In this document: positions 30,516 to 39,199 of the stretch, piece after piece
Position numbering within the stretch: the first letter of the stretch is position 1
Layout: every line of letters begins with the position of its first letter
DNA from: an archaeon
Lineage (GTDB): Archaea; Nanobdellota; Nanobdellia; Pacearchaeales; DTIR01
NCBI GenBank assembly: GCA_043799715.1
Contig: JAZDNM010000003.1
Span: 156,903-220,902 of the forward strand
Direction of reading: 5' to 3'
Length of the DNA: 64,000 nt
The notes under the pieces: model-generated
The model's input: only the letters and a program-made list of their open reading frames with translations
Database searches by the model: none
Told to the model about the DNA's origin: nothing
Made by a program: the position numbers and the translations under genes

Positions 30516-30702
30516 TTTTGATTTATAAATTTTTCATGCGCAATTATAGGGATTTTTGCCTGTTTTTTACTTACTAACCAGTGAAAAAAAGCAAAAAACC
30601 ATGATAAAATGCAGAAAAAACGAAACCTTTATAAATGCAGATTTTTTTGCAATATTTGAAAATTTTAGCTTAATTTTTAATGTTATTCAGGAGTATTCAA
30701 AA

Positions 30703-30912
30703 ATGCACGCCCTCCAGCCAAAACACACGAAATTAAAAGAAAAAGAGGGGGAGGATATCCTTAAGGAATTAAATGTTTCTCGTCAGCAATTGCCAAAAAT
30801 CAAGATTAATGATGCGGCACTGCCTCAGAATTCCCAGATAGGCGACATAATCACAGTGGAAAGGCATCTCGGAAAAGAAAAAAAGGGGTATTACAGGGTT
30901 GTTGTTGAATAA
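30703..30912 (+). CDS. rpoH: RNA polymerase subunit Rpo5 (RpoH)
   Basis: Track ORF starts at 30556. I prefer the Met at 30703, preceded by AGGAG. 69 aa: HALQPKHTKLKEKEGEDILKELNVSRQQLPKIKINDAA..GDIITVER. Position directly upstream of rpoB is the conserved archaeal order. Confidence 0.8.
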   Translation: MHALQPKHTKLKEKEGEDILKELNVSRQQLPKIKINDAALPQNSQIGDIITVERHLGKEKKGYYRVVVE

Positions 30913-30920
30913 TTTCAAAA

Positions 30921-33900
30921 ATGGCAGAACTTCAAAATCAGGGGCATAATGAAATTGACAGGGAGCATTTGCTCGTCAAAAAATATCTTTCGCAGCATTC
31001 TCTTGTTGAGTCAAACATAACTTCTTTCAATAATTTTGTTGAAATACGCATGCAGGAGATTGTTAATGAGATAAGGGAATCCCTGCCTCAGGAGGATATA
31101 GAGATAAAATTAGGGAGGATAAAGCTGAAAGAGCCTTCAATAATAGAAGCTGACGGCTCTGTCAGGAGAATCTCGCCAACAGAGGCAAGGCTCAGAAGCC
31201 TGACATATTCAGCTCCTGTCATGCTTGAGATAACAATCAAGCAGGGTAATCAGACAGAGCAGCAGGATGTTGAGATAGGAAAAATTCCGGTTATAGTAAA
31301 GAGCAAATACTGCAATCTTTCAATAAAAAACAAGGTAGCAAAAAATAAGGACGAGACAGAGGATTACAATGACCCTTTAGACACCGGCGGATATTTCATA
31401 GTCAACGGCAATGAAAGAGTCATGGTAATGATTGAGGACTTGGCCCCGAACCAGTTCTTTATAGAGAAAAACGCAGCAGAAAAAATGATGCTCAGGATTT
31501 TCTCGCAGAGAGGCGCATACAGAATCCCAATCCAGCTAGACGAGGGCTCTGACGGAATAATAAATGTCTCATTCTCCAGGTTCAAGAATATCCCTATTGT
31601 CGTTATGCTCAAGGCTCTTGGGATGCTGAGAGATTCAGATATCTCCAAGTACATAGGAAAAGAGTCTGATGCATTGATTGTCAACCTTTACGAGTTCGCG
31701 AATATACAGAGCTCACAGGATGCAATGATGTTCATAGCTGAAAAAACAGCAATGCAGGGCACAAAAAAAGAAGTTATGGACAGGATAAAAGACAGAATAG
31801 ACCAGTATTTCCTGCCTCATGTAGGCACAAAGCAGGAGAATAGGGCAGGCAAAGCAATTACTCTATGCAAGCTCGCAAGGCAGTTCCTGACTGCAAAGGC
31901 AAATCCTGATTTTATCACAGACAAGGACCATTATGCAAACAAGCGTGTAAGGCTCTCGGGAGATTTATTGGCAGACCTTTTCAGGGTTAATCTATCAGCA
32001 TTGATAAGGGATATACAGCACAACTTGCAAAGAACACTGAGAAGAAAAAAAGCATACTCAATAAAAACACTCGCAAAATCAACATTATTCTCCCACAGGA
32101 TTGAATCTGCAATCGCAACAGGCAGCTGGATAGGCGAAAGAACAGGAGTAACGCAGAACATGGACAAGACAAATTATCTCGCTGTACTTTCACAGCTGCA
32201 GAGAGTCTCAAGCCTGCTCCCAGGAGAACAGGAGAATTTCCTTGCAAGAACACTTCATCCGACGCATTACGGAAGGTTCTGCCCTGTTGAAACACCTGAA
32301 GGAACTGAAATAGGGCTCAGAAAGAACCTTGCACTGCTTGCAAGAATAAGCACCGCAGTCGAACTTGACGAGAAGGAATTCTTAAAATTCATAGAGGGCA
32401 AAGGGCTTCAGAATTATGAAAAGGAGATTCAGGGGGAAAATGTATTTGATGTTTTTTACAACGGGCAGTTTATAGGATTTGTTAAAGAGCCTGAAAAATT
32501 TGTTTCTGCAATGAGAGAATCAAGAAGAACAGGGAAACTGCCTATTGAATTAAGCATACGCCTTGACAATACAAATGCTCTCGTTGTAATATCAACTGAA
32601 ACAGGCAGGGTTCTCAGGCCTCTGATTATCGCAAAGAACAGCGCAAGCATGCTTGCAGAGGAGCACATGGAAATGCTAAGAAACAACACACTCTCATGGA
32701 ACGACCTATTGAGCAATGGTGTTATTGAGTATCTCGACGCATCTGAAGAGGAGAATGCCCTTGTTGCACTGAATGAATCAGAGATTACAGCAGAGCACAC
32801 TCACCTTGAAGCTGACAAGATTGATTTGTTAGGACTGGTTACAAGCCTTGTTCCATTCGGCAATTACAATCAGGCATCAAGGCTTAATCGTGGAAGCAAG
32901 ACGCAAAAACAGGCGCTTGGATTGTACTCAGCAAATTTCTTATGCAAGATTGACACAGATGTTAATCTATTGCACTATCCGCAAAAGCCGATTGTAAGGA
33001 GCTTTATCTATGATACATTAAATATCTATCCGGCAGGACAGAATGTGGTTGTTGCTATCCTCACATATGAGGGATATAACCTTGAAGATGCTATTGTCAT
33101 AAACAAGGGCTCAATTGAAAGAGGCTTGGGAAGAAGCACTTACTTCAGGCCTTACAAAACAACCGAGCTTCATTATACAGGCGGGCTTTCAGATGAAATA
33201 TGCGTGCCAAGCAAAGATACAAGTGGATACAGGACAGAAACAAGCTACAGATTCCTTGAAGACGACGGCATTGCATACCCTGAAGCCAACCTCGACGAGA
33301 ATGAGGTAGTTATAGGCAAGACATCACCTCCAAAATTTCTGAGCGAAGCAGGGGAAATCGCAATAAAAGCAAGAAAAGAATCAAGCATGGCAATCAGGTC
33401 GGAAGAAAAAGGGACAGTTGATGCTGTTTTTGTAACTGCAGATGCAGAAGGCAACAGGATTGTACAAGTCAGGACAAGAAATGAAAGAATTCCTGAAATA
33501 GGCGACAAATTCTCAACTGCGCACGGGCAGAAAGGAGTAATAGGGGCGATAATCCCTGAAGAAGACATGCCCTTCACATCAAAAGGCGTAAGGCCTGACA
33601 TAATATTCAATCCTCACGGCATCCCAAGCAGAATGACCGTTGGTTATCTTCTCGAAATGATGTCAGGCAAGGCAGGAAGCCTGGCAGGCAAGAGCATTGA
33701 CGGAACAATGTTCTCTGGAACAAGCATATCTGAACTTGAGAAAGAGCTACAGAGTTCCGGGTTCAGATATGACGGAAAAGAAACAATGTTCAACGGCATA
33801 ACAGGAGAGATGTACGGAGTCAAAATTTACATAGGCGACATGTACTACTTAAGATTGAAATATATGGTTTCAAACAAGATGCATGCAAGAGCCCTTGGAA

Positions 33901-34232
33901 AAGTTACATTGCTGACAAGGCAGCCGATAGAAGGCAGAAGCAAGGGCGGGGCATTAAGGCTGGGAGAAATGGAGCAGCAGGCGCTTGTTGCGCACGGAGC
34001 ATCATTGCTGCTGAAAGAAAGATATGATTCAGACAAGGTTACTGTCCATGTATGCATAAAATGCGGGATTATGGCAATAAAAGACAACATTCACAATAAG
34101 ATTTACTGCCCTATATGCCAAAATTCTCCTGTTGAGCCTGTGCAGATTTCATACGCATTCAAACTGCTTGTTGATGAGTTGATTTCACTGCACATCCTTC
34201 CAAGATTTGAATTAAAAAACAAGTACGAATAA
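30921..34232 (+). CDS. rpoB: RNA polymerase subunit Rpo2 (RpoB), unsplit
   Basis: 1103 aa. GDKFSTAHGQKGV, LRLGEMEQQAL, C-terminal Zn ribbon CIKCG..CPIC. Confidence 0.95.
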   Translation: MAELQNQGHNEIDREHLLVKKYLSQHSLVESNITSFNNFVEIRMQEIVNEIRESLPQEDIEIKLGRIKLKEPSIIEADGSVRRISPTEARLRSLTYSAPVMLEITIKQGNQTEQQDVEIGKIPVIVKSKYCNLSIKNKVAKNKDETEDYNDPLDTGGYFIVNGNERVMVMIEDLAPNQFFIEKNAAEKMMLRIFSQRGAYRIPIQLDEGSDGIINVSFSRFKNIPIVVMLKALGMLRDSDISKYIGKESDALIVNLYEFANIQSSQDAMMFIAEKTAMQGTKKEVMDRIKDRIDQYFLPHVGTKQENRAGKAITLCKLARQFLTAKANPDFITDKDHYANKRVRLSGDLLADLFRVNLSALIRDIQHNLQRTLRRKKAYSIKTLAKSTLFSHRIESAIATGSWIGERTGVTQNMDKTNYLAVLSQLQRVSSLLPGEQENFLARTLHPTHYGRFCPVETPEGTEIGLRKNLALLARISTAVELDEKEFLKFIEGKGLQNYEKEIQGENVFDVFYNGQFIGFVKEPEKFVSAMRESRRTGKLPIELSIRLDNTNALVVISTETGRVLRPLIIAKNSASMLAEEHMEMLRNNTLSWNDLLSNGVIEYLDASEEENALVALNESEITAEHTHLEADKIDLLGLVTSLVPFGNYNQASRLNRGSKTQKQALGLYSANFLCKIDTDVNLLHYPQKPIVRSFIYDTLNIYPAGQNVVVAILTYEGYNLEDAIVINKGSIERGLGRSTYFRPYKTTELHYTGGLSDEICVPSKDTSGYRTETSYRFLEDDGIAYPEANLDENEVVIGKTSPPKFLSEAGEIAIKARKESSMAIRSEEKGTVDAVFVTADAEGNRIVQVRTRNERIPEIGDKFSTAHGQKGVIGAIIPEEDMPFTSKGVRPDIIFNPHGIPSRMTVGYLLEMMSGKAGSLAGKSIDGTMFSGTSISELEKELQSSGFRYDGKETMFNGITGEMYGVKIYIGDMYYLRLKYMVSNKMHARALGKVTLLTRQPIEGRSKGGALRLGEMEQQALVAHGASLLLKERYDSDKVTVHVCIKCGIMAIKDNIHNKIYCPICQNSPVEPVQISYAFKLLVDELISLHILPRFELKNKYE

Positions 34233-34238
34233 AAACAA

Positions 34239-37200
34239 ATGACAGAAGTAATAAGAAAACAAATTAAGAGCATAGGATTTGGTTTGATAAGTCCTGAAGA
34301 AATAAAGAAAATAGGCGTTGCAAAAATTGTCACGCCTGAACTTTATGACATGGATGGCTATCCTGTAGATGGCGGCTTGATGGATCTGAAGCTCGGTGCA
34401 ATCGACCCGGGAGTCAGATGCAGGACTTGCGGAGGCAGGCTGAAAGAATGCCTCGGGCACTTTGGTTTTATTGAACTGGCAAGGCCTCTTATGCATATAA
34501 AATATATCAGCATAATCGAAAGAGTCTTGAGAAGCACATGCCACTCATGCAGCAGGATTCTCCTTGCCCAAAAAGATATTGAGAAATACTCCGCTTTAAT
34601 AAGGATAAAAAAAGCAAAGGATGTAAAGAAATGCCCATATTGTAATGCAGTGCAGGAAAAAGTAAAACTTGAGAAGCCTACATCCTTCGTTGTCGGCAAG
34701 AAAAGAATATTCCCAACAGAAGTAAGGGCAAAGCTGAACAAGGTTTCTGAGGAAGATTTGAAGCTTCTTGGAATAAACCCAAAAACAGCAAAACCTGAAT
34801 GGGCTGTTTTGACTTTGCTTCTTGTGCCGCCTGTAACATCAAGGCCTTCAATAACCCTTGAAACAGGAGAAAGAAGCGAAGATGACTTGACTCATAAATT
34901 AAGTGATATAGTAAGGGCAAACCAGAGATTATGGGAGAACCTGAATGCAGGAGCGCCTGAAGTTATAATAGAAGACTTATGGGATTTGCTTCAGTATCAC
35001 GCAACAACATTTTTTGACAACTCTGTCCCGCAAATACCCCCTGCAAGGCACAGGAGCGGACAGCCGCTGAAAACAATAACTGAAAGAATAAAAGGAAAAC
35101 AGGGAAGAATAAGGCACAATCTCGCTGGCAAGAGAGTTAATTTCTCTGCAAGAAGTGTTATTTCCCCAGACCCTTCCATCCGATTAAATGAAGTAGGAAT
35201 TCCGCTTGAAACTGCAAAGATAATCACAGTTAATGAAACTGTCAACACAGTAAATATCAACTTATTAAAGAAACTTGTTCTTTCAAAAGAATATCCCGCT
35301 GCAAACTATATTGTAAGGCCTGATGGCAAGAGAAAAAGAATAACTCCTGACTTGCAGGAAGACTTGGCAGACGAGCTTGCTATAGGATATACAGTTGAAA
35401 GGCATTTAAGAGACGGAGATGTTCTCCTGTTCAACAGGCATCCTTCTCTTCATAAAATGAGCCTGATGGCACATTTTGCAAAAATACTTCCAGGCAAAAC
35501 TTTCAGGCTGCATCCTGCTGTAACATTCCCATACAACGCTGATTTTGATGGGGATGAGATGAATATACATTCGCCGCAGACAGAAGAGGCAAGGGCTGAA
35601 GCAAAAATCCTGCTTGAAGTTAACCAGCAGATGATATCCCCAAAGAACAATACAAATGTCCTTGGATGCATTGCAGACGCAATAACAGGTAATTACCTTC
35701 TGACAAACAGAAAGTTTACAAGAGAAGAAGCATGCCAACTCCTCATTGAGGCAGGCGCGGACATTAGTGAATTGAAGCATGCAACAGACGGCAAGGATGT
35801 TTTTTCAGCATTGATTCCGAAGATAGATTTTGCAAGGAGAACGAGAGCTTGCATGGGGCAGGACTGCAAGTACTATGACTCAAAATCCTCAGGAGAAGAA
35901 TGCTACAGGAACTGCAAGAAAGAGAACTGCCCTGATAATTCTTATTTGAAGATAGACAACGGCAAGCTTGTGTCAGGGATAATTGACAGCCACGCTTTTG
36001 GCGTTGAGGACAGCGTAATGCTCAAGATGCTTGATGTTAATGTTGGGAGAAACAAAACAATAGATGTTTTAAGGAAAATTTTCAGCCTTGGAAGTTTGTA
36101 TCTTTCAAGAAACGGATTCACAATATCCCTCGAAGATATCAAAGTAACTGATTCCATAAAAGAAATCACACAAAACACAATAAGGGAAGCTGAACGCAAG
36201 GTCAAGGAGATTATTGATTCTTATTCAAACAAGAGCCTTGAGCCTGTGCCTGGAAAAACACGCGAAGAAACAAGGGAAATCAAGATATTGCAAGTCTTAA
36301 ATGAAGTAAGAAGCAAAGTTGGAAATATTGTAAAGAGGGAAATGCCAAAAAACAACCCAACAAATACAATGATCCTGTCAGGAGCAGGGGGAAACACGGT
36401 TTATGTAACCCAGATGGCATGCTTGGTAGGGCAGCAGGCATTATGGGGCAAGAGAATAAATTTGGGATACAGCAACAGGACACTTTCATTTTTCAAGAAC
36501 AATGACTTGTCCCCTGTGGCAGGCGGATTTATCTATTCATCATTCCTCGAGGGATTAAAGCCCTATGAATTTTTCTTTGGGGCGATGACAGGAAGGGACT
36601 CGCTTATGGACACTGCATTAAGAACACCGCGTTCAGGATATTTATACAGAAGACTTGCCAATGCGCTTCAGGATTTGAAAATAGAATACGACGGGACAGT
36701 AAGGGACGCTTCAGGCAATGTTATACAGTTTGCATACGGCGATGACGGCAAGGACACAAGCAGGCTGCATCTTCCCAACAATAAGATTGCCCCTGCAGAA
36801 GCAATCGGCATAATTACAGCGCAGTCATTCGGAGAGCCATCAACACAGATGACCTTGAATGTTTTCCATTTTGCAGGAATTTCAGAAATGCAGGTTACAC
36901 TGGGTTTGCCGCGTTTAATTGAGATATTTGACGCAAGAAAGAAGCCATCCACTCCAGCCATGGAAATCCATTTGGACTCTGATTTCAACAATGAGGAATC
37001 TGCGAGGCTTACTGCCGAGAAGATAAAGGAAATAATGCTTAAGGACATTGCAGAATCAGTGACTGTAAATTTCACAAGCAAGAGAATAGATGTACTTCTT
37101 GACAAGAAGGCGCTTAAGCAAACACATGCATCAGCAGAAACAATCGTAAGGAGACTAAATGAGAAGAATTTCAAAGTCAAGATTGATGGGGACAGTATAG

Positions 37201-37784
37201 TAATGAAAGCAGAGGAACTTGATTTCAAGGGATTATACAAGCTAAAGGAAAAAATGAAGAACATAATTGTTTCAGGGATTGAAGGAATTAAGCAAGTCCT
37301 GCCTGTAAAGAGAGATGAGAGTTATGCAATCCTGACAGCAGGCTCAAATTTAAGGGAGATATTAGAAGTAAAAGGCGTTAATGCAGGCAAAACCACAACA
37401 AATGACCTTTTTGAAGTTGCTGAAGTCCTTGGCATAGAGGCTGCGAGGCAGTCAATAATAAACGAAACATTGAAAGTTATAGAATTTCAGGGGCTTGATA
37501 TAGATGAGAGGCATGTCAGGCTTGTCGCTGATGCAATGACTTCTTCAGGAGAGATAAAAGGCACAACAAGAATAGGCATAATAAACCAGAAGACCTCAAT
37601 TCTTGCAAGAGCATCTTTTGAAACACCAATAAAGCATTTCGTGAATGCAACATTAAAAAATCAGAGAGATGAGTTAGCCAGTGTTATTGAAAATGTAATT
37701 CTAAACCAGCCTGTGCCTGTAGGCACTGGCTTGCCGGGCTTGCTTGTTAAGATAACAGGCAAGTTAAATAAGGCGCAAGAGTAG
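34239..37784 (+). CDS. rpoA: RNA polymerase subunit Rpo1 encoded as one ORF (A' and A'' portions fused), 1181 aa
   Basis: N-terminal Zn motif CRTCGG..C.GHFG. Catalytic NADFDGDEMN (35535-35564). Bridge helix GAMTGRDSLMDTALRTPRSGYLYRRL. Then, in the same frame, the A''-type trigger loop AQSFGEPSTQMTLNVFHFAG (from about 36831) and the A'' C-terminal region. Confidence 0.9.
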   Translation: MTEVIRKQIKSIGFGLISPEEIKKIGVAKIVTPELYDMDGYPVDGGLMDLKLGAIDPGVRCRTCGGRLKECLGHFGFIELARPLMHIKYISIIERVLRSTCHSCSRILLAQKDIEKYSALIRIKKAKDVKKCPYCNAVQEKVKLEKPTSFVVGKKRIFPTEVRAKLNKVSEEDLKLLGINPKTAKPEWAVLTLLLVPPVTSRPSITLETGERSEDDLTHKLSDIVRANQRLWENLNAGAPEVIIEDLWDLLQYHATTFFDNSVPQIPPARHRSGQPLKTITERIKGKQGRIRHNLAGKRVNFSARSVISPDPSIRLNEVGIPLETAKIITVNETVNTVNINLLKKLVLSKEYPAANYIVRPDGKRKRITPDLQEDLADELAIGYTVERHLRDGDVLLFNRHPSLHKMSLMAHFAKILPGKTFRLHPAVTFPYNADFDGDEMNIHSPQTEEARAEAKILLEVNQQMISPKNNTNVLGCIADAITGNYLLTNRKFTREEACQLLIEAGADISELKHATDGKDVFSALIPKIDFARRTRACMGQDCKYYDSKSSGEECYRNCKKENCPDNSYLKIDNGKLVSGIIDSHAFGVEDSVMLKMLDVNVGRNKTIDVLRKIFSLGSLYLSRNGFTISLEDIKVTDSIKEITQNTIREAERKVKEIIDSYSNKSLEPVPGKTREETREIKILQVLNEVRSKVGNIVKREMPKNNPTNTMILSGAGGNTVYVTQMACLVGQQALWGKRINLGYSNRTLSFFKNNDLSPVAGGFIYSSFLEGLKPYEFFFGAMTGRDSLMDTALRTPRSGYLYRRLANALQDLKIEYDGTVRDASGNVIQFAYGDDGKDTSRLHLPNNKIAPAEAIGIITAQSFGEPSTQMTLNVFHFAGISEMQVTLGLPRLIEIFDARKKPSTPAMEIHLDSDFNNEESARLTAEKIKEIMLKDIAESVTVNFTSKRIDVLLDKKALKQTHASAETIVRRLNEKNFKVKIDGDSIVMKAEELDFKGLYKLKEKMKNIIVSGIEGIKQVLPVKRDESYAILTAGSNLREILEVKGVNAGKTTTNDLFEVAEVLGIEAARQSIINETLKVIEFQGLDIDERHVRLVADAMTSSGEIKGTTRIGIINQKTSILARASFETPIKHFVNATLKNQRDELASVIENVILNQPVPVGTGLPGLLVKITGKLNKAQE

Positions 37785-37792
37785 ACAAGAAG

Positions 37793-38212
37793 ATGACAAG
37801 GACATTAGAGATGCAGTTTATCCAGTATATGAATTTCTTTGAAAGGGCAATAGGACTCAGGGCAAAACACTGCTTTTCTTATAACAGCACGATCTTTTTT
37901 GTGGTTAGTCCTGCTCTTGTTCCAAGAGCGCTTGGAAATGGCGCTGAAAATCTAAAGAGGCTGTCAATTATGCTAAGAAGAAAAATAAGGATTATTGCTG
38001 CCCCGTCATCTGCCAATGATGCAAAGGAGTTCATATCCCGGCTTGTTTACCCCCTTGAAATAAACGGATTTACAATTGAAGGCAAAGAAGGCTGTATTCT
38101 TGCGCCTCGGCAGTCTAGGGCGATGATTATCGGCAGAAATAAAACAAAGCTTGTTGAGCTTGAAGGGGTATTAAAAGAATACTTTGGGATAAAAAAATTA
38201 AGAGTTATCTAA
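37793..38212 (+). CDS. nusA: Archaeal NusA-like KH-domain protein
   Basis: 139 aa. Position immediately after rpoA as in archaeal rpo operons. KH-like GxxG context IIGRNKTKL. Confidence 0.7.
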   Translation: MTRTLEMQFIQYMNFFERAIGLRAKHCFSYNSTIFFVVSPALVPRALGNGAENLKRLSIMLRRKIRIIAAPSSANDAKEFISRLVYPLEINGFTIEGKEGCILAPRQSRAMIIGRNKTKLVELEGVLKEYFGIKKLRVI

Positions 38213-38215
38213 GGT

Positions 38216-39199
38216 TTACTTCCAGCTGACATCAACATCATCTGTTCTTTCATTTGCGTTGATATTCGCCTGCTTTGCTGCTATTTTTATACCTTTCCCA
38301 AACATTTTTATTCCTAAATAGGAAATCATCCCTGCATTGTCAACAAGAAACTCATTTGCCGGACAGAAAAATTTTGCTTTTCTTTCATTGCACATTATTC
38401 TTGCCATTTCCTGAAGCCTTGAATTGCACGCCACTCCCCCTCCTAGAAGCAGCTCGTCTTTCTTCAAGTGCGCAAGAGCCCTTTCAGCAGCTTCTATAAT
38501 CATTGCGAATGCTGTCTCCTGTAATGAATAAGCCAAGTCCTCTAACCTTGTGCCTTTGTCATATTTCTGCTTCAGATTTGTGAGCAAGCCTGAAAATGAA
38601 ACATCCATGCCCTTGATTGAATAAGGCAGTTCAATATATCCCCCCCCTTTTGCAAACTCAGCAATTTTTGGCCCCCCTGGAAAACCAATGCCGCAATGCC
38701 TTGCAAATGTGTCAATAAAATTTCCTATGCCTATGTCGAGAGTTTCTCCAAATACCCTGTATTTGTTTCCTGCAAATGAGATAATCTGCGTATTTGCTCC
38801 TGACGCATAAAGCAGCACAGGATTTTTGCATCCGGTTGTTTCCCCTATTTCAAGATGTGCAATGCAGTGATTTACAGGGACAATGGGTTTGTTTAATTTT
38901 AATGCAAGCTCTTTTGCAAAGCCAAGCCCTTGCAGAAGGCAGGGAGCAAGCCCAGGACCTTTAGAGAATGCTATTGCATCAATGTCCTCAATTTTAATTT
39001 TTGATTTTTCTAATGCTTCATCAAGCAATTTTTCCTTCACAGAAGCATGGTGCTTTGCCGCATCCATAGGGATAATCCCTCCCTTTTCGGTGGTATATGA
39101 ATCCCTGCAGTTCGCAATAACCTTTATCTCTTTTCCTTTTTTTTCTGCAATCCCTATCCCGAATGTGTGAGCAGTGCTCTCTATCCCCAAAATTAGCAT
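38216..39199 (-). CDS. kae1: Kae1 (tRNA t6A threonylcarbamoyltransferase, OSGEP family), stand-alone
   Basis: LGIESTAHTFGIGI N-terminus, metal-binding NHCIAHLEIG, GGVACNSRLQEM. Confidence 0.9.
   Translation of the reverse strand: MLILGIESTAHTFGIGIAEKKGKEIKVIANCRDSYTTEKGGIIPMDAAKHHASVKEKLLDEALEKSKIKIEDIDAIAFSKGPGLAPCLLQGLGFAKELALKLNKPIVPVNHCIAHLEIGETTGCKNPVLLYASGANTQIISFAGNKYRVFGETLDIGIGNFIDTFARHCGIGFPGGPKIAEFAKGGGYIELPYSIKGMDVSFSGLLTNLKQKYDKGTRLEDLAYSLQETAFAMIIEAAERALAHLKKDELLLGGGVACNSRLQEMARIMCNERKAKFFCPANEFLVDNAGMISYLGIKMFGKGIKIAAKQANINANERTDDVDVSWK

Follow-up and report, generated by a model that had tools for sequence, protein, structure and literature searches.

A single-polypeptide RNA polymerase subunit Rpo1 in Pacearchaeales lacking most of the A' tail and the A'' head

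The largest RNA polymerase subunit, Rpo1, is encoded as one polypeptide in the window, the 64,000-nucleotide stretch of DNA analysed here, from a tiny DPANN archaeon of Pacearchaeota type (class Nanoarchaeia/Nanobdellia). Its gene, rpoA, is very probably a working housekeeping Rpo1/RpoA gene that was formed by an in-frame deletion in the ancestor of the order. A fusion of RpoA in Pacearchaeota is already known from two papers, of 2017 and 2021; because it has been published, it brings no new biology by itself. What can be added to the published text are the limits of the deletion and an order-wide survey: further detail, rather than a new kind of gene.

Gene and locus

A single frame running from ATG to TAA encodes a protein of 1181 amino acids with no internal stops. 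Rpb1 domains 1-5 follow one another in order within this one protein (Pfam PF04997, PF00623, PF04983, PF05000 and PF04998; E-values from 1e-22 to 1e-83). [quoted passage not shown] The gene starts 6 nt past the stop of an unsplit rpoB, and a nusA-like gene begins 8 nt beyond it. This position, within an rpoH-rpoB-rpoA-nusA operon, is that of an archaeal Rpo1 gene. The features of the locus are the following.

30556..30912, + strand: rpoH (Rpo5); Pfam PF01191, E 2e-13; NCBIfam NF007129, E 7e-15
30921..34232, + strand: rpoB (Rpo2), unsplit, 1103 aa; Pfam Rpb2 domains 1-7 in one frame
34239..37784, + strand: fused rpoA (Rpo1), 1181 aa; A'-equivalent about residues 1-844, A''-equivalent about 845-1181
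35535..35555, + strand: NADFDGD catalytic Mg site, residues 433-439; from the translation, invariant in 37 fused homologues
36570..36677, + strand: bridge helix, about residues 778-813; by alignment to Rpb1 815-879
36735..36818, + strand: junction linker, residues 833-860 (Y-G-D-D-G ... A-I-G-I-I-T)
36819..36938, + strand: trigger loop region, residues 861-900, starting A-Q-S-F-G-E-P; aligns with Rpb1 1057-1125 and Rpo1C 57-130
37793..38212, + strand: nusA-like gene, 139 aa, last of the operon here; TIGR01952, E 2.2e-13, positions 3-140/141, below the curated cut-off
38216..39199, - strand: kae1/tsaD, convergent; Pfam PF00814, E 1e-79

In the 118-aa frame of rpoH, which opens with TTG, the Rpb5 C-terminal domain spans residues 50-116; the true start may lie later than this annotated TTG.

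What is missing at the A'/A'' junction

We compared the protein with PDB chains by phmmer and with profiles from Pfam and NCBIfam. Residues 5-841 match Rpo1N (A') from 4 to 881 of 910 (8cro_A), and residues 845/850-1175 match Rpo1C (A'') from 57/60 to 389 of about 395 (36rp_C, 36ro_C). With the Sulfolobus chains, the match limits are 854 of 880 for A' and 62 for A''. Between Rpo1N 881/910, where the matches stop, and Rpo1C 57-60, where they resume, the protein therefore lacks the A' tail and the A'' head. The NCBIfam A' models are matched to 854/867 and at 4-862/883, and the A'' model at 38-361/367; in a split pair from a sister lineage (L015), the A' match extends to 867/867 and the A'' match begins at position 2 of 367.

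The canonical split type is represented by P. furiosus 8CRO (chains A and C), T. kodakarensis 4QIW and S. shibatae 2WAQ. Their Rpo1N and Rpo1C share domains, motifs and operon position with the window protein, with E-values of 1e-264 for A' and 1e-80 for A''. However, they are encoded by two genes, with a stop and a new start between them, an A' tail of 26-29 residues and an A'' head of 56-61 residues, none of which is found in the window gene. The net loss amounts to about 61 residues when counted against the nearest split relatives, and to 77-80 against Pyrococcus or Sulfolobus. We also measured the distance from the Y of Y-G-x-D-G to the Q/E of A-Q/E-S-x-G-E-P: it is 28-30 residues in 39 fused genes (median 28) and 79-102 residues in 33 split pairs (median 89).

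Eukaryotic Rpb1 and bacterial beta' are single polypeptides too, like the window Rpo1. In yeast Rpb1, residues of the window protein up to 844 align to 815-879, and those from 849 align to 1057 onward. With the flanks thus aligned to 815-879 and 1057-1125, the 177-residue Rpb1 segment 880-1056 has no counterpart in the window protein, where only four unaligned residues stand in its place. Unlike eukaryotic Rpb1, the window Rpo1 has no CTD.

The sequence-only reading had described a single polypeptide spanning A' and A'' without stop or frameshift at the junction, with the trigger loop placed straight after the bridge-helix module and roughly 80 residues lost from the A' tail and the A'' head. 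The uninterrupted 34239-37784 frame with its five domains, the four residues in place of Rpb1 880-1056 and the net loss against Pyrococcus or Sulfolobus bear out this description. Of the motif positions given there, NADFDGDEMN at 35535 is right; the trigger-loop motif AQSFGEP lies at 36819 and not at 36831.

A literature search for the position of the A'/A'' split in the RNAP structure yielded nothing usable. An AlphaFold2 model of the whole Rpo1, built from a 37-sequence alignment, has a mean pLDDT of 53.9 and a pTM of 0.33, with pLDDT below 50 across residues 717-889.

Linker and bridge helix

The linker is 28-30 residues long in the 39 fused genes, and 29 in the window. Its consensus is D-V-S-x-L-H-x-x-x-K-I-x-P-G-E-A-I-G, the window gene having D-T-S-R-L-H ... 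P-A-E-A-I-G. In split relatives the A' tail begins with D-V-S-K/R-S-E/H-G-G..., which the first part of the linker matches, and the A'' head ends in ...A-K-I-x-P-G-E-A-I-G, matched by its last part. H844 of the linker and the catalytic motifs are invariant across 37 aligned fused homologues. The window gene thus shows both features of the Pacearchaeota-type fused RpoA, a single frame of about 1130-1200 aa and a linker of 28-30 residues.

The bridge helix carries a proline of nanoarchaeal type, P797 in R-T-P-R-S-G-Y, which is invariant in the fused clade. In its passages on the bridge helix, the study of Nottebaum and Weinzierl (2021, PMC8204694) describes the proline substitution for N. equitans and the same types of substitution in Pacearchaeota and Woesearchaeota sequences; two pacearchaeal sequences given there share the proline of the window protein.

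Distribution in the order and the class

The fused and split forms were surveyed in two overlapping genome samples, one of 31 relatives from the same order and the other of 201 genomes of the class, the latter searched with a 301-residue query spanning the junction. Among the 31 relatives, 29 have one frame of 1133-1203 aa and the other two are without a match. In the class sample, the match is continuous and lies within one frame of 1137-1201 aa in all 28 genomes of the order. In other orders 171 genomes matched, each with at least two separate matches save for one with a single partial match; their typical split frames are of about 850-880 aa and 380-394 aa. At all 12 junctions that were read in other orders, including 10 flagged for long open frames, a stop codon is followed by a new ATG.

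These long frames, of 1188-1387 aa in ten genomes of other orders, were considered as fused genes that had kept the module, and were rejected: all are split at the stop. In four of them (G094, G117, G176 and G196) the A' gene is lengthened by an intein, about 500 aa in size and immediately ahead of NADFDGD, and the remaining six have split genes sharing one frame across the stop. A second intein is present in A'' of G117 and G196.

When the junction region was used in a protein search, over 100 clusters of 1130-1200 aa came up, which stem from independent assemblies; several carry the name Pacearchaeota or Nanoarchaeia. By the names of genome records, the fused form belongs to Candidatus Pacearchaeota, and some of the records bear the label Woesearchaeota or Nanoarchaeota. 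The clusters are mostly annotated as "subunit A'". Annotation pipelines tend to put this label on the whole fused protein, which calls for caution from those who use it.

The survey suggested in the sequence-only reading therefore finds the gene fused in all same-order matches and split at the other-order junctions read, and with it the proposed novelty of the fused Rpo1 is lost, since the form is present in every matching genome sampled from the order and had been published before. Within the genomes sampled, the fusion marks the order cleanly as a derived character, which helps in classifying genomes of Pacearchaeota type.

The fusion was reported by Da Cunha, Gaia, Gadelle, Nasir and Forterre (2017, PLoS Genet, PMC5484517), whose main text speaks of "a secondary fusion" "in Pacearchaeaota" and refers to S29 Fig for the region. 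Nottebaum and Weinzierl (Front Mol Biosci) reported it again, in a passage of PMC8204694. As far as these passages go, the published gene is the same as ours, A' and A'' in one polypeptide by secondary fusion, and nothing essential differs. The main text of the first paper and the passages of the second give it one sentence each, which do not describe the size of the deletion, its limits or its distribution across the order.

Origin of the fusion

We built a FastTree phylogeny of 49 Rpo1 sequences, from which columns filled in fewer than 60% of rows were dropped, a filter that removes most of the junction. The tree is of this same protein only, and its root was set by the outgroups chosen. The 20 fused Pacearchaeota sequences form one clade with a support of 100, and the window sequence (L001) lies inside it. 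The sister group consists of 22 split sequences of Woesearchaeota type (support 94), with two more split lineages outside. From the nesting of the fused clade among split sequences we infer that the fusion is derived and arose once.

We propose that a single in-frame deletion in the ancestor of the order fused A' and A''. It would have taken most of the A' tail, the stop codon, a spacer of a few bases, the A'' start and most of the A'' head, a total of perhaps 60-75 codons as estimated from the aligned flanks. The 28-30 residues left as a linker would then join the strand that follows the bridge helix (Y-G-D-D-G) to the P-x-E-A-I-G preceding the trigger loop.

The same gene could have come about in two steps: the A' tail and the A'' head trimmed while the genes were separate, and a later fusion by loss of the stop. 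Trimming and fusion are indeed separable events, since G048, a genome from another order, has trimmed genes that are still split. Its profile limits nearly coincide with those of the fused genes (A' to 854/867, A'' from 33/367). Both of its genes share a reading frame, and nothing but TGA and two codons stands between the first gene and the ATG of the second; L089, a locus from Micrarchaeota, is likewise split and trimmed. However, G048 belongs neither to the fused clade nor to the Woesearchaeota-type clade but branches outside the two, and among the genomes sampled no trimmed split form occurs inside or next to the fused order. The linker, in addition, still shows traces of both ends, the pattern expected from one deletion. 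We regard the two-step origin as unlikely, and we rejected G048 as a direct intermediate, because the Rpo1 tree does not make it the sister of the fused clade.

That the gene had never been split, and had only lost an internal segment, we hold to be very improbable. Unsplit RpoA of the A type does exist in other archaeal phyla: in Thaumarchaeota, Korarchaeota and relatives it is likewise one polypeptide (main text of PMC5484517; PMC3852633), and there it is taken as primarily unsplit, in contrast to the secondary form of Pacearchaeota. Short fused forms are also found in Altiarchaeota (L092), Aenigmatarchaeota (L074) and another DPANN lineage (L071). Yet split lineages of the same class surround the fused clade, the other short fused forms branch far away and have linkers unrelated to its own, and Da Cunha et al., in the main text of PMC5484517, also interpret the fusion as secondary. 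The comparison of sequences points to L092, L074 and L071 as probable products of events independent of the Pacearchaeota fusion. Together with G048 and the Micrarchaeota case, they suggest that trimming or fusion at this boundary recurs independently in archaea with small genomes.

Authenticity and selection

A genome of the same genus, assembled as one contig, has the same frame with 87% identity. Compared with it, the whole gene has a dN/dS of 0.045, a sign of purifying selection, with dS near saturation; the 50 codons on either side of the junction have a dN of 0.039 and a dS of 1.34. Logan contigs of one aquatic metagenome run (X1, 0.20 of words) come from a relative only, with no contig over 36708-36877.

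The chance that two genes were falsely joined here, or that the gene is decaying, is negligible: although the source assembly is of metagenome type, with 15 contigs and a completeness of 87.5%, the frame recurs in the one-contig congener and in dozens of independent assemblies, dN/dS is about 0.05 and the catalytic motifs are all invariant. On this comparison of assemblies, we conclude that the fused rpoA is genuine and not an assembly error.

Function and the lost module

[quoted passage not shown] The fused enzyme should thus be an ordinary archaeal RNAP with one fewer subunit to assemble. In Pol II, the Rpb1 segment 880-1056 (177 residues) is the foot domain, and the lost module would correspond, in archaea, to the base of this 'foot'. 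The covalent link would replace this small surface module, by which A' and A'' hold together. If so, the A'/A'' boundary module may be dispensable once the two halves are covalently joined, as far as can be judged from sequence.

The Pol II foot is said to bear on the assembly of Rpb6, and for this reason we examined whether Rpo6 had been lost. Neither PF01192 nor a clade-specific profile found its gene, rpoK, in the window's genome (G000). Relatives from the genus and from the family have it, as do 25 of the 27 sampled members of the order. A loss of Rpo6 together with the foot module is therefore ruled out; since the G000 assembly is 87.5% complete and the relatives have rpoK, its gap there is not a loss.

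In 12 sequences from the order, Rpo6 has an acidic C-terminal tail of 60-70 residues. Elsewhere in the class, Rpo6 frames are mostly of 55-100 aa, and the acidic tail is absent from most other orders. The loss of the module might be coupled to this change, with the tail occupying the vacated surface, compensating for it or aiding the assembly of the fused subunit; we consider this improbable. Were it true, this lineage would offer the re-engineering of RNAP assembly as a natural experiment.

Shortened operon

No rpl30e is present in the 8-nt gap between rpoA and nusA. Downstream of nusA, kae1/tsaD occupies the spot where rps12-rps7 follow in most relatives, as found by comparing contexts; the order rpoA-nusA-rps12-rps7 is kept at most Pacearchaeota loci, including one of the same family (L003). 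The operon had been described as pared down to rpoH-rpoB-rpoA-nusA, with none of rpl30e, rps12 and rps7 following, and as far as gene order goes this is accurate. Here rps12 and rps7 have simply been relocated: they lie together on the same contig at G000:C6:146519-147440, beyond the window and 44 kb upstream from rpoA. The shortened operon is a local rearrangement, in which the rps12-rps7 block moved by 44 kb, and has no relation to the fusion of rpoA.

Trimmed and short rpoA genes in other lineages

The fused genes of the Pacearchaeota share one feature of the bridge helix that is invariant across their clade, a proline of the Nanoarchaeum equitans (N. equitans) type.
Window 36627-36629: P797, bridge-helix proline
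In M. jannaschii RNA polymerase, PMC8204694 reports, activity is lowered by proline at the equivalent position.

A split A'/A'' pair in which tail and head are both already trimmed occurs at locus L014, on contig C28 of G048, a genome from another order of the class. Its A' ends 15 residues past Y-G-E-D-G and the A'' head comprises 31 residues; the two frames are in phase, and the spacer consists of TGA and two codons. The pair looks like an intermediate, yet its position in the Rpo1 tree is elsewhere.

Three short fused genes were found in other lineages:
L071: DPANN lineage, 1128 aa frame
L074: Aenigmatarchaeota, 1171 aa
L092: Altiarchaeota, 1154 aa
The linker of each is unrelated to that of the Pacearchaeota, which indicates independent fusions. 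In two Pacearchaeota records, L032 and L058, the fused gene is interrupted into two frames away from the A'/A'' junction, close to residues 490 and 225, probably through frameshift errors in those assemblies.

Operon surroundings and small subunits

In the window's genome (G000), the rps12-rps7 pair lies 44 kb away from the rpo operon, and a convergent kae1 follows nusA in its place.
G000:C6:146519-147440, outside the window: rps12-rps7 pair
Window 30556-30912: rpoH frame, 118 aa, TTG start
The Rpb5 domain covers only residues 50-116 of this 118-aa frame: either rpoH carries an N-terminal extension, or its true start is located later.

Searches of the whole-genome assembly of G000 with PF01192 and a clade-specific profile did not find rpoK, whereas the gene is present in a genome of the same genus. 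Most likely, rpoK of G000 resides in the unassembled 12% of the genome. Elsewhere in the fused-rpoA order (L103-L114, outside the window), Rpo6/RpoK bears a C-terminal tail of 60-70 residues rich in E, D and K.
L104:1313-1717, minus strand: Rpo6/RpoK with tail, example
Its open frames measure 130-166 aa in all 13 order members among those listed; for the window's family the range is 152-209 aa. Most frames from the rest of the class are 55-100 aa long, and the one in G048 has 57 aa.

Inteins in split rpoA genes

Woesearchaeota-type rpoA' genes contain an intein of about 500 aa directly upstream of the NADFDGD motif.
L005 (G117), L006 (G094), L008 (G196), L011 (G176), also L090, L091 and L095: rpoA' intein carriers
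In some rpoA'' genes, the trigger loop is the site of a second intein that includes a LAGLIDADG domain.
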